Of a DNA stretch of 4,005 nt, positions 2,315-3,388 are shown one piece after another (the first letter of the stretch is position 1; each line of letters starts with the position of its first letter). Position numbers and translations under genes: made by a program. The DNA comes from a virus. Taxonomy: Duplodnaviria > Heunggongvirae > Uroviricota > Caudoviricetes. The DNA lies in IMG/VR virus record IMGVR_UViG_2541047173_000019; one strand, 5' to 3'. Below the pieces are notes generated by a model that saw only the letters and a list, made by a program, of their open reading frames with translations, had not been told where the DNA came from and ran no database searches.

Positions 2315-2354
2315 ACAATAAAAAACTGTTTTTGTGTCAACAGTTTTTAATTGT
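2315..2354. promoter_or_regulatory. left operator (OL-like): inverted repeat of two 15-bp half-sites with a 10-bp spacer, carrying a -35-like TTGACA for leftward transcription
   Basis: ACAATAAAAAACTGT (2315-2329), spacer ttttgtgtca, ACAGTTTTTAATTGT (2340-2354). The first half-site is identical to the one at 3350-3364; the second matches 3374-3388 at 14 of 15 positions. TTGACA on the minus strand at 2340..2335. The -10 element is not clear. Confidence 0.6.
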
Positions 2355-2364
2355 TGTTTTGGGC

Positions 2365-2387
2365 AAAAAAATCCCTCGAAAGAGGGA
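2365..2387 (-). terminator. rho-independent terminator ending the repressor-antitoxin-toxin operon
   Basis: On the minus strand: UCCCUC-uuuc-GAGGGA, then seven U (plus A-run 2365-2371). Begins 19 nt after the parE stop, before the left operator. The plus strand has no T-run, so it is one-directional. Confidence 0.6.
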
Positions 2388-2405
2388 GTATGAAAATTGT
2401 TCAAC

Positions 2406-2693
2406 TCAGATAGAGAAGGGAAATTGTCGCCGAGAATGTGTCACGCTTACAATCTCAATGCTTGAAGCAGCTACTCTGTACAGGATTATGTAGTTAGGGT
2501 GGGTCACGATCTCTCTCAATCCAGAAACCCGTTCGCTTGGTGGATATAAGTACGGATGCTCAGATAGAGGTAATACCGATGTTTCAATGCGTATTTTTAG
2601 TCTACGTGCTGCCGGTGGGTTCTCCTTGGCGATGTAAGTTATGATCTGGCGCAAATCATCGCGAGCAGACGGTAGCCATAAAATGGGTAACAT
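2406..2693 (-). CDS. parE: type II toxin, RelE/ParE superfamily, ParE-like, 95 aa
   Basis: Product MLPILWLPSARDDLRQIITYIAKENPPAARRL...GLREIVTHPNYIILYRV...IEIVSVTHSRRQFP shows the ParE-family pattern as I know it. The ATG overlaps the antitoxin stop (TAATG). Stop TGA at 2408..2406. Confidence 0.85.
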   Translation of the reverse strand: MLPILWLPSARDDLRQIITYIAKENPPAARRLKIRIETSVLPLSEHPYLYPPSERVSGLREIVTHPNYIILYRVAASSIEIVSVTHSRRQFPFSI

Positions 2694-2884
2694 TACTCGC
2701 TCTTGTTAGTTACAGCAATTTGAGCAATAAGATTTTCCATTTCAGCCATTACCTCGTCATGTGGAATTGCGGGGCGAGTGTCTGCAAGGCTTGACGTTAC
2801 TTTAGTGCGCAACCATTCGTTGTAACTGTTTTCTTGTTCGGTAGTTTCGAATTCTGAAACTATCGGAGAAAGGGCTGTACCCAT
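2693..2884 (-). CDS. small antitoxin partnered with the ParE-like toxin, 63 aa (addiction-module-component type; PaaA-like from memory)
   Basis: Strong AAGAGGAG RBS 7 nt upstream of the ATG at 2884; lies immediately upstream of, and coupled to, the toxin. The C-terminal half (..NEWLRTKVTSSLADTRPAIPHDEVMAEMENLI..) matches the E..W...IPHDEV pattern of small ParE/RelE-partner antitoxins as I recall it. No obvious N-terminal DNA-binding fold. Confidence 0.75.
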   Translation of the reverse strand: MGTALSPIVSEFETTEQENSYNEWLRTKVTSSLADTRPAIPHDEVMAEMENLIAQIAVTNKSE

Positions 2885-2911
2885 GGCATAACTCCTCTTC
2901 TTGTACTGTGG

Positions 2912-3313
2912 TCACGCCCGGCGGCTTTTTTGTGCCGCCAGCCACCTAGCAATGGTTTCTTCCATTGATTTTTTCTTGTCTTTGATTTCTTGAAGCATTT
3001 TTTCTTGGTCTTCCTCAGGAAACGCACTAAAAGCTTGGAGCAGTTCGCGTTGGCGAGGACCAATTTTCATCGTGTCAGGGGTGAAAATTTGCTCACACTC
3101 TTCAGGAGGCAATAAAAACCAATGCAATGGATGCCCTGAAACCTCAACCAGTTTATCCAAACTTGAGGCTTTAGGTGTAGCCTTACCGCTGACCCATTGT
3201 TGAACAGTTTGTTGTGTCACACCAATTCTACGGGCAAGCTCAGCCTGGCTCCATCCAGTTTCCTGAAGAAGCTTGCTGATTCTGTACATAGATACTTCTA
3301 GGGCGCTCATCAT
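2912..3313 (-). CDS. prophage immunity repressor, XRE-family HTH, DicA/RacR-like, 133 aa; possibly also the regulator of the downstream TA pair
   Basis: N-terminal HTH (ISKLLQETGWSQAELARRIGVTQQTVQQWVSG) and a C-terminal helical region ending ELLQAFSAFPEEDQEKMLQEIKD, the same layout as DicA as I recall it. Divergent from a Cro-like gene across an operator-bearing intergenic region. No SD, and a -10-like TAAAAT 6 nt before the ATG. Confidence 0.8.
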   Translation of the reverse strand: MMSALEVSMYRISKLLQETGWSQAELARRIGVTQQTVQQWVSGKATPKASSLDKLVEVSGHPLHWFLLPPEECEQIFTPDTMKIGPRQRELLQAFSAFPEEDQEKMLQEIKDKKKSMEETIARWLAAQKSRRA

Positions 3314-3349
3314 TATTCAATTTTACAGGTAAATACTGTTAAAAGCATC
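3314..3349 (-). promoter_or_regulatory. candidate repressor-maintenance promoter (PRM-like) giving a leaderless or near-leaderless transcript
   Basis: TAAAAT on the minus strand at 3325..3320, 6 nt before the repressor ATG at 3313. No SD, and only weak -35 candidates near 3343-3348, which directly abut the operator half-site at 3350-3364. Confidence 0.4.
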
Positions 3350-3388
3350 ACAATAAAAAACTGTTGATTGCATACAGTTTTTTATTGT
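3350..3388. promoter_or_regulatory. right operator (OR-like): perfect 15-bp inverted repeat with a 9-bp spacer in the divergent promoter region
   Basis: ACAATAAAAAACTGT (3350-3364), spacer tgattgcat, ACAGTTTTTTATTGT (3374-3388); the two halves are exact reverse complements. A -35-like TTGATT on the plus strand at 3364-3369. Confidence 0.65.

Follow-up and report, generated by a model that had tools for sequence, protein, structure and literature searches.

Probable immunity region of a CP-933M/Sp4-type lambdoid prophage carrying the paaR1-paaA1-parE1 toxin-antitoxin cassette between predicted OL and OR operators

The experimentally studied paralogue of the locus described here is paaR2-paaA2-parE2 of prophage CP-933P, in which PaaR2 is the CI analogue, YdaS the Cro analogue and YdaT the CII analogue (Jurenas et al. 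2021, PMC8630535; Prolic-Kalinsek et al. 2023, PMC9986795). In that prophage OL and PL come after parE2, paaR2 has a leaderless mRNA, and the toxin-antitoxin (TA) pair "replaces rexA and rexB" (PMC8630535, PMC9986795). PaaR2 and YdaS bind and repress OR and OL/PL, YdaT activates PRE, and the 5′ RACE start of paaR2 falls on its ATG (PMC8630535). The TA genes show appreciable transcription in both switch states, and steady-state ParE2 activity was not seen (PMC8630535). The locus stabilises plasmids, with post-segregational killing as the only published phenotype besides, and its published role is addiction or stabilisation (PMC8630535). Two paralogous systems are known, each co-transcribed from a promoter upstream of paaR, with no cross-neutralisation of ParE2 by PaaA1 or of ParE1 by PaaA2 (PMC4803016). 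Toxicity of ParE, its neutralisation by cognate PaaA and the Clp-dependent lability of the antitoxin are credited to Hallez 2010, as cited in PMC8630535 and PMC4803016. The same two papers, after Hallez et al. 2010 (Mol Microbiol 76:719), place a homologue of paaR2-paaA2-parE2 in the cryptic prophage CP-933M.

The window, a 4,005-nucleotide stretch of viral DNA, encodes repressor, antitoxin, toxin and Cro-like proteins that are 100% identical to the products of ECs_1067-1070 in prophage Sp4 of O157:H7 Sakai. The toxin corresponds to ECs_1067 (WP_001303876.1), the antitoxin to ECs_1068 (WP_000536233.1), the repressor to ECs_1069 (WP_000986592.1; 'phage repressor protein' in Sakai) and the ydaS-like product to ECs_1070; the three accessions belong to match H1 and, at 100% identity, are also those of CP-933M in EDL933. 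The likeness to the paaR-paaA-parE systems of O157:H7 prophages, put forward in the initial annotation, was right. At the DNA level, 437 complete E. coli genomes match positions 2300-3420 at 99% identity or more; O157:H7 strains are numerous among them, and many O157:H7 genomes have exactly this sequence. The flanking parts of the window are closer to a non-Sakai Shiga-toxigenic E. coli (STEC) prophage integrated next to potC (99.2%) than to Sp4 at yccA (96.1%); the immunity module is the same as in Sp4. We conclude that the stretch very probably represents the immunity region of a lambdoid prophage of the CP-933M/Sp4 type from STEC and that it carries the known three-component operon paaR1-paaA1-parE1, a name that we adopt provisionally from secondary citations and from identity to the CP-933M/Sp4 proteins. 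A search of an isolated-phage collection with ParE1 returned only phage Evi, of the paaR2 type, and one distant match, and no phage of the paaR1 type.

Three codirectional minus-strand genes form the cassette, at exactly the positions first called: paaR1 (2912-3313, 133 aa), paaA1 (2693-2884, 63 aa) and parE1 (2406-2693, 95 aa). The two junctions described earlier are likewise present. The first is a 27-nt gap (2885-2911, from the ORF coordinates) with a GAGGAG Shine-Dalgarno sequence (reverse complement of 2892-2897) 7 nt upstream of the paaA1 ATG, and the second a 1-base overlap of the paaA1 stop and parE1 start in TAATG (2691-2695). On the plus strand follow a ydaS-like gene, the Cro analogue (3422-3694, 90 aa; PF15943, 8e-10), and a ydaT-like gene annotated to the YdaT family, the CII analogue (3678-4005, running off the window; PF06254, 2.3e-10). 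The leftward operon ydfA-ydfB-...-DicF-dicB is also present at this locus. Current database labels for the gene products are 'RelB family antitoxin', 'helix-turn-helix domain-containing protein' and 'toxin YdaT'.

Protein searches, which the initial annotation had proposed, matched the products to ParE2, PaaA2 and PaaR2, and weakly to DicA. The predicted ParE-type toxin was confirmed by Pfam (PF05016, 2.9e-17, 63.5 bits against a cut-off of 23) and by the PDB (ParE2, 5cw7_B, 3e-36). The 63-aa product belongs to the PaaA2 antitoxin family (PF21217, 5.6e-19, 68.3 bits against a cut-off of 27; PaaA2, 3zbe, 1.4e-20 in the PDB), and searches of Pfam and curated families detected no other domain in it, including no DNA-binding domain. 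The separate helix-turn-helix (HTH) regulator is encoded first in the cassette, for which co-transcription is predicted. It combines an N-terminal HTH_3 domain (Pfam, 2.3e-12) with a C-terminal domain common to PaaR2 and DicA; in its alignment with PaaR2 (BLASTP, 1e-20) the C-terminal domain is conserved and the N-terminal DNA-binding domains are barely alignable. Among curated families it scores best with DicA (NCBIfam NF007257, residues 11-130 aligned), at 51.5 bits against a cut-off of 101 and hence below the threshold of the model. By this model the repressor is a distant relative that lies outside the family. Among solved structures, those nearest to its N-terminal domain are 434 repressor chains (3.2e-05, a weak match). 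Peptidase_S24 is absent from the 25 best Pfam matches listed for the repressor, and a peptidase domain is reported missing from the Sp4 repressor (PMC2669165). By analogy the protein would be CI-like in action, yet it is no member of the CI/LexA family.

The cassette is bracketed by near-identical operators, as had been noted, and this similarity is real. The 15-bp pseudo-palindrome ACAATAAAAAACTGT, allowing up to three mismatches, occurs four times in the window (2315-2329, 2340-2354, 3350-3364 and 3374-3388) against 0.30 expected, and none of 200 shuffles reached four sites. The arm at 2313-2329 is complementary to 3374-3390 at 17 of 17 positions, and that at 2337-2354 to 3350-3367 at 17 of 18. 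A degenerate motif, ACARKWWWWWAYTGT, reveals a fifth site at 3325-3339 that was missing from the earlier list. Across 114 kb of prophage loci of the same type this motif is confined to the five positions, and the operator motif was not found in six loci of other immunity types.

Two of the sites make up OL. Site a (2315-2329) has the same sequence, ACAATAAAAAACTGT, as 3350-3364, and site b (2340-2354; ACAGTTTTTAATTGT) lies 25 bp away with one mismatch to the consensus; they flank a minus-strand TTGACA, and repressor binding is predicted here. The other three sites, spaced 25 and 24 bp apart, occupy the 108-bp gap between paaR1 and ydaS (3314-3421). The OR3-like site (3325-3339; ACAGGTAAATACTGT) lies within the PRM core, 25 bp from the next site. 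The OR2-like site (3350-3364) abuts a weak PRM -35 (3343-3348) and touches the PR -35, and the OR1-like site (3374-3388; ACAGTTTTTTATTGT) covers the PR spacer and -10. Each 40-bp inverted repeat could be read as a single long operator. We prefer to read each as two 15-bp ACA-N9-TGT sites, with a tripartite, lambda-like OR, because the third site at 3325-3339 stands alone and the 24-25 bp spacing matches that of the lambda operators. With two recognisable OL sites about 1 kb from OR, this predicted five-site geometry could support OL-OR looping by an oligomeric repressor.

Promoters can be proposed around each operator. A PL-like promoter for the leftward ydfA-ydfB-dicF-dicB operon (2310-2340, minus strand) matches at 10 of 12 positions, with a -35 TTGACA (reverse complement of 2335-2340) between the two OL sites, a 19-nt spacer and a -10 TAGATT (reverse complement of 2310-2315) overlapping OL site a. 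In the paralogue, PL933P has been shown experimentally at the equivalent place (PMC8630535). The putative PR-like promoter (3364-3393, plus strand; -35 TTGATT at 3364-3369, 18 nt, -10 TAGGCT at 3388-3393) is weak, at 7/12, and was missed by a stricter promoter scan; TATAGT at 3399-3404 is an alternative -10. The PL-like and PR regions have 17 nt in common (ACAGTTTTTTATTGTAG). On the minus strand, a PRM-like -10 TAAAAT (3320-3325) is followed after 6 nt by the repressor ATG (3313). The paaR1 mRNA is predicted to be leaderless because no Shine-Dalgarno sequence precedes this ATG, and the PaaR2-type locus L006 has the same geometry (GATAAT, 6 nt, ATG). An alternative PRM (TTAACA, 19 nt, AATAAT; 10/12) was set aside since its start would fall inside the ORF, and the paaR2-like geometry is favoured.

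Downstream of the toxin and before OL lies the intrinsic terminator of the cassette (2365-2387, minus strand), in the position of lambda t-imm. Both a terminator scan and the hairpin itself bear out the earlier call of a single terminator here: the stem (2372-2387) has 6 bp with four GC pairs and a T7 tail extending to about 2365. Direct inspection of four other immunity types revealed a hairpin at the same position, with a T-run in three of the four. Beyond OL, the leftward operon has a conserved leader of 175 nt (2129-2305 on the minus strand), which was considered as a structured RNA; the idea was dropped, as its folding energy does not improve on that of shuffles (z = +0.7) and it has no Rfam match. 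On the right, a YdaT operator (TTGATTCATGAAAATCAA, 3671-3688) overlaps the ydaT start codon (3678) and agrees with the published OM consensus TTGATT-N6-AATCAA (PMC9986795). The CP-933P-type locus L006 has an identical copy; over the five immunity types the site does not vary beyond its second base, and its first base differs in one of them, L005.

The CP-933P system has the same gene order, the same slot between ydfA and ydaS, the same leaderless geometry and OL past the toxin. Its YdaT operator and the 5′ end of its ydaT are identical to those of the window, and the C-terminal domain of the repressor is conserved; ParE is 67%, PaaA 62% and PaaR 37% identical. In contrast, the operators are unrelated, ACA-N9-TGT here and GTTTAGTAA repeats in CP-933P, and so are the repressor DNA-binding domains. 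The two types are therefore heteroimmune, and with unrelated operators and barely alignable N-termini the binding details of CP-933P are not transferable to this locus.

The lambda cI-rexA-rexB region has a leftward repressor, accessory genes, terminator and OL/PL in the order seen here. Both also have a tripartite OR between divergent PRM and PR, and Cro- and CII-like genes to the right, and the repressor mRNA of the window is predicted to be leaderless as well. Unlike lambda, the window carries a type II TA cargo without Rex homology, a repressor without the S24 autocleavage domain and only two recognisable OL sites. The Qin dicA-dicC region of E. coli K-12 has the ydfA-ydfB-...-DicF-dicB operon in common and a repressor, DicA, resembled by that of the window over its full length; there the ydfA promoter region comes straight after dicA. 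Phage Tritos, which shares the flanks and encodes a CI repressor, likewise has no TA pair in that gap. The phage 434 repressor shows weak N-terminal similarity to PaaR1 and differs in its C-terminal domain. The 434 operators, ACAA-N6-TTGT, are 14 bp long, and their outer ACA...TGT triplets recur in the 15-bp sites here.

The arrangement recurs elsewhere. Besides the window, four heteroimmune E. coli prophages place repressor-paaA-parE, a hairpin and an OL-like repeat in the slot from ydfA to ydaS; in each, the OL and OR regions share a repeat particular to that prophage. Counting the window, at least five immunity types have the arrangement, and it occurs in 833 of 5426 complete E. coli genomes (about 15%). 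Each set of repressor, operators and cro-like gene, with its own diverged paaA-parE pair, lies within the variable immunity block, which is bounded by the nearly identical ydfA leader (left) and YdaT operator (right); the identity profile across types is that of a classical immunity mosaic.

Gene content, junctions, terminator, the five 15-bp sites and the YdaT operator are features of the DNA itself, and the regulatory model of the locus is drawn by analogy with CP-933P paaR2-paaA2-parE2. PaaR1 would act as a CI-like repressor on the ACA-N9-TGT sites, shutting off PR (ydaS-ydaT and the replication genes) and PL (ydfA-ydfB-dicF-dicB) and autoregulating a weak PRM. From PRM a leaderless paaR1-paaA1-parE1 mRNA would run to the terminator before OL, and since it spans all three genes, PaaA1 and ParE1 would be made throughout the repressed (lysogenic) state. 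YdaS may compete for the same sites in a Cro-like manner, and YdaT, acting on TTGATT-N6-AATCAA (3671-3688), may activate a leftward PRE-like promoter. PaaA1 would be a labile antitoxin without DNA binding that neutralises ParE1, itself probably an SOS-inducing toxin directed at the nucleoid. If the immunity region were lost or replaced, ParE1 would be freed, and the cassette would thus be an addiction module stabilising the prophage immunity region. Weak points of the model are the PR match of only 7/12, the 19-nt PL spacer, the lack of sequence relation to the CP-933P operators and, in the paralogue, TA transcription in both switch states with no ParE2 activity seen at steady state.

In an alternative view the TA pair would be an autonomous moron that has a promoter of its own, is autoregulated by PaaA-ParE and stands next to the repressor gene by chance, outside the PRM transcript. 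The paralogous PaaA-ParE complex alone partially represses transcription (PMC4803016), the paralogous TA reporter is active in both switch states (PMC8630535), and phage Tritos, with the same flanks and no TA pair, marks the cassette as dispensable cargo. However, promoter scans and reading of the 27-nt paaR1-paaA1 gap found a Shine-Dalgarno sequence and no promoter-like site, and on the minus strand inside paaR1 the scans found nothing above 8/12. No terminator was detected between paaR1 and paaA1, the only one in the cassette being that after parE1, and the paralogous operon is reported to be co-transcribed from the promoter upstream of paaR (PMC4803016); an autonomous pair is very unlikely. 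Scarcely credible is the reading that makes the 133-aa HTH protein no immunity repressor but one half of a split antitoxin, the half that binds DNA and regulates the TA operon. PaaA1 does lack a DNA-binding domain, HTH_3 is common in antitoxins, and PaaR was first described in the literature as a third TA component. Yet the same operator recurs 1 kb away, past the toxin, over a strong -35 facing ydfA-dicF-dicB, and the promoter region of the divergent cro-like gene is overlapped by it as well. The repressor gene moreover stands in the place of dicA/cI, with conserved lambdoid flanks on either side, DicA is its best curated family, Sakai annotates it as a phage repressor protein, and PaaR2 has been shown to repress PR and PL (PMC8630535).

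The cassette might instead serve mainly in Rex-like exclusion or abortive infection rather than in addiction, a role compatible with the preferred explanation. Many prophage TA systems defend against phages, and both the rexAB-equivalent position and expression from the lysogenic promoter would, by analogy, suit such a role. Against it, neither ParE1 nor PaaA1 matches any PADLOC defence model and the repressor has only generic HTH matches there, so that a catalogued defence system is unsupported. We found no phage challenge data in the literature; for the paralogue, the published phenotype is confined to post-segregational killing and the stabilisation of plasmids, and its toxin was not seen to be activated at steady state (PMC8630535). 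Exclusion is thus unlikely to be the main function, and an addiction module within the immunity region is the reading that we retain.

The initial annotation placed the TA pair in the rexAB slot, which is correct by position and agrees with the published description of the paralogous pair as replacing rexA and rexB. Its suggestion that the placement was worth documenting does not hold, as the arrangement is already in print for the paralogue. As a discovery the finding has little weight; earlier publications already cover the module, its make-up of three components and its setting within a lambda-like immunity switch in the place of rexAB. In the literature, where Hallez 2010 was represented by citations of it, we found no description of the paaR1-type operators, promoter geometry, terminator or YdaT site. 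The value of the present analysis lies in confirmation, in placing the features of the paaR1-type locus precisely and in the comparative evidence for recurrence, which should help the annotation of STEC prophages given the generic labels that their genes now bear.

Addiction as such had already been put forward by Jurenas et al. 2021 (PMC8630535). Tentatively, the at least five heteroimmune sets with their own paaA-parE may offer new, purely computational support for immunity-linked addiction, and the 15-bp PaaR1-type operator may be a previously undescribed one, although we consider this reading doubtful. On the addiction model, a prophage whose immunity region was exchanged by recombination with that of another lambdoid prophage in the same cell would be penalised by its orphaned toxin. 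If the reading is true, its novelty would be limited to the breadth of types and the operator anatomy.

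ORF calling on the window returned three minus-strand genes at exactly the coordinates first assigned to them: a repressor (2912-3313, 133 aa; Pfam HTH_3, 2.3e-12), an antitoxin (2693-2884, 63 aa; PaaA2, 5.6e-19) and a toxin (2406-2693, 95 aa; ParE_toxin, 2.9e-17). The closest solved structures are ParE2 of E. coli O157:H7 for the toxin (5cw7_B, 3e-36) and PaaA2 for the antitoxin (3zbe, 1.4e-20), bearing out both the ParE-family assignment and the suggested likeness to paaR-paaA-parE systems. The repressor is closest to the 434 repressor DNA-binding domain (3.2e-05). Its best curated family is DicA, aligned over residues 11-130 at 51.5 bits, below the cut-off of 101. 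No S24 peptidase domain is among the 25 best Pfam matches listed for it, and the Sp4 repressor is described as lacking a peptidase domain (Asadulghani et al. 2009, PMC2669165). To the right of the cassette lie YdaS-type (3422-3694, PF15943) and YdaT-type (from 3678, PF06254) genes; to its left are ydfA (DUF1391), ydfB, a 129-aa ORF, the DicF sRNA, dicB and a DUF1482 gene.

Sakai ECs_1069, ECs_1068, ECs_1067 and ECs_1070 match the repressor, antitoxin, toxin and YdaS-like proteins, respectively, at 100% identity. The EDL933 prophage at yccA, taken from its position to be CP-933M, carries the same RefSeq accessions (WP_000986592.1, WP_000536233.1, WP_001303876.1). Over its whole length the window shares 99.2% identity with a prophage that sits beside potC in many strains, STEC 2013C-3277 among them, and 96.1% with Sp4, a prophage of O157:H7 Sakai. 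Among complete E. coli genomes, 437 carry positions 2300-3420 at 99% identity or more (many O157:H7 strains at 100%), and by a relaxed DNA search 833 of 5426 have a related cassette. The final 38 bases (3968-4005) are unaligned in the best E. coli matches, which stop at 3967; this break probably reflects a further mosaic junction, within ydaT.

The junctions described initially are present in the sequence. Repressor and antitoxin are separated by 27 nt (2885-2911), with GAGGAG 7 nt ahead of the antitoxin ATG, while antitoxin and toxin overlap by one base (TAATG). The intrinsic terminator after the toxin (element 2365-2387, stem 2372-2387, minus strand; 4/6 GC pairs, T7 run), also recovered by folding, is indeed the sole one on that strand past the last gene, and the scan gave no terminator-like site between the three genes. 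On the plus strand, a terminator-like hairpin with a T-run (2950-2967) lies antisense to the repressor gene, within its 3′ end; with 7 sites in the scan against 4.8 expected, it may have arisen by chance.

The near-identical repeats reported to bracket the cassette are real and non-random. With up to 3 mismatches, ACAATAAAAAACTGT occurs at 2315-2329, 2340-2354, 3350-3364 and 3374-3388 (4 against 0.30 expected; 0/200 shuffles reach 4), and the longer repeat arms are complementary across the two ends at 17/17 and 17/18. The degenerate motif ACARKWWWWWAYTGT has five sites in the window and no others: 2315-2329 and 2340-2354 in OL, beyond the toxin, and 3325-3339, 3350-3364 and 3374-3388 in OR, with start-to-start spacings of 25, 25 and 24 bp. 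Each 40-bp operator of the initial annotation is therefore better read as two adjacent 15-bp pseudo-palindromic sites. Across L001, L002 and L007, same-type loci totalling 114 kb, the motif is confined to these positions, and the six loci of other immunity types lack it. The OR of the paaR1-type locus is tripartite in its predicted sites, as is that of lambda. A degenerate fourth half-site may exist at 3394-3408, which repeats 3368-3382 at 13/15.

Promoter assignments are inferred. A putative PRM has TAAAAT (reverse complement of 3320-3325) followed by exactly 6 nt and the repressor ATG, without a Shine-Dalgarno sequence. OR site 3325-3339 lies inside this core promoter, and a weak putative -35 (ATGCTT, 3343-3348) abuts the middle OR site, a placement that fits the OR2/OR3 logic of lambda. 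The PaaR2-type locus (L006) has GATAAT + 6 nt + ATG, and the paaR2 transcription start site maps to the ATG (PMC8630535). In the UTME-14 prophage (L003), TAAAAT + 6 nt precedes an in-frame ATG (3895-3903) that lies three codons before the annotated repressor start; given this leaderless arrangement, RefSeq probably places the start three codons too far downstream. In a putative PL, TTGACA falls between the two OL sites and is followed 19 nt downstream by TAGATT (10/12 match), and a weak putative PR reads TTGATT, 18 nt, TAGGCT (7/12); both contain the 17-nt stretch ACAGTTTTTTATTGTAG. Overlapping the ydaT start codon, the predicted YdaT operator TTGATTCATGAAAATCAA (3671-3688; TTGATT-N6-AATCAA) is a perfect copy of the published consensus for this CII analogue (PMC9986795). 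The CP-933P-type locus (L006) has the identical sequence, and across the five heteroimmune types every base from the third on is invariant, with L005 differing at the first. This operator marks the right-hand edge of the variable immunity block.

Four diverged cassettes (L003-L006) were fetched for comparison. All four have repressor, paaA, parE, hairpin and OL-like repeat between ydfA and ydaS. In L006 (ATCC 25922), ParE2 is 100% identical to the crystallised protein and the repressor starts MQKKE, the N-terminus determined for PaaR2. Identity to the window proteins is 67-88% for ParE, 62-84% for PaaA, 37-66% for the repressor and 21-61% for the Cro-like protein. Repressors of the five types share a C-terminal segment of ~45 aa (..LLQxFxAFPEEDQ..ARWLAAQKxRRA; in the last third of the protein, window 2912-3060), also spanned by the DicA alignment, joined to divergent N-terminal HTH domains, which suggests that a mosaic breakpoint lies within the gene and that the five share an oligomerisation domain. 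OL and OR of each type have a type-specific repeat in common (17, 14, 10, 10 and 12 nt). In 60-nt steps, the flanks are mostly 80-100% identical (ydfB-ydfA-leader to ~2290; rightward from ~3660), the TA genes are intermediate, and OL, the paaR N-terminal half, OR and the cro 5′ half fall to 30-67%: a classical immunity mosaic. Phage Tritos has the same flanks, a CI-type repressor and no TA pair, so the TA cassette is optional cargo in its slot. Phage Evi, from a phage collection, carries a paaR2-paaA2-parE2-type module (parE unannotated at 3001-3276); modules of this type therefore also occur outside chromosomal prophage remnants such as CP-933P.

Several features of the leftward operon were also observed. 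DicF antisense sRNA (681-732, minus strand; Rfam RF00039, 65.7 bits against a gathering score of 48) lies between dicB (318-506, minus) and the 129-aa ORF (1442-1831, minus), which occupies the ydfC place of other prophages and gave no family match. STnc100 matches 487-692 below threshold (32 bits against 47). On the opposite strand, a 61-aa ORF (1070-1255, plus) has a zinc-ribbon-like CPAC...CPEH and no Pfam match; its annotation is hypothetical protein (WP_001133046.1, ECs_1061). The non-coding leader from the PL-like promoter to ydfA (2168-2300, including GGGGCGGGGTGGGT) is 80-95% identical across five immunity types, and the adjoining operators are unrelated between types; the leader has no Rfam match and its fold is not unusual (z = +0.7).

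The sequence establishes what the genes are, their junctions, the terminator, both operator sets and the YdaT site; a circuit may be proposed by analogy with the CP-933P paralogue. PaaR1 would repress PR and PL and autoregulate PRM, whose leaderless transcript would carry paaA1-parE1 to the terminator at 2365-2387. YdaS would compete for PaaR1 sites, and near 3671-3688 YdaT would switch on a leftward PRE-like promoter. ParE1 would be neutralised by labile PaaA1 until the region is lost, whereupon the toxin would become active, resulting in addiction.

An autonomous promoter for the TA pair is an unlikely alternative; in published paaR-paaA-parE systems a sigma-70 promoter upstream of paaR drives co-transcription of the genes, with full repression by PaaR and partial repression by PaaA-ParE (PMC4803016). 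It is also improbable that the repressor regulates the TA pair only. In CP-933P, PaaR2 has been shown experimentally to be a CI analogue made from leaderless mRNA; footprints of PaaR2 and YdaS cover repeated operators in the paaR2-ydaS interval, PL933P with OL operators on the far side of parE2 is repressed ~100-fold, YdaT activates a PRE-like promoter, and the switch is bistable (Jurenas et al., PMC8630535). A Rex-like exclusion role is a further, also unlikely alternative; no PADLOC model matches ParE1 or PaaA1, and the CP-933P locus stabilises an unstable plasmid (PMC8630535). PaaA1 reportedly does not neutralise ParE2, nor does PaaA2 neutralise ParE1 (PMC4803016).

Jurenas et al. (2021, PMC8630535), in a statement citing Hallez et al. 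(2010), place a homologue of paaR2-paaA2-parE2 on CP-933M. Given this and the CP-933P work, together with the protein families and operators, the initial reading of a TA cassette within the immunity region was correct; its placement, thought still worth documenting, had already been interpreted in print (PMC8630535). The finding correctly re-identifies a system that is already published. What is new is modest: predicted operators and promoters mapped for the paaR1 type and, by computation, at least five heteroimmune repressor/operator sets, each with a diverged paaA-parE inside the immunity mosaic. This five-set pattern is consistent with the hypothesis of addiction to the immunity region, already proposed by Jurenas et al. 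(PMC8630535).
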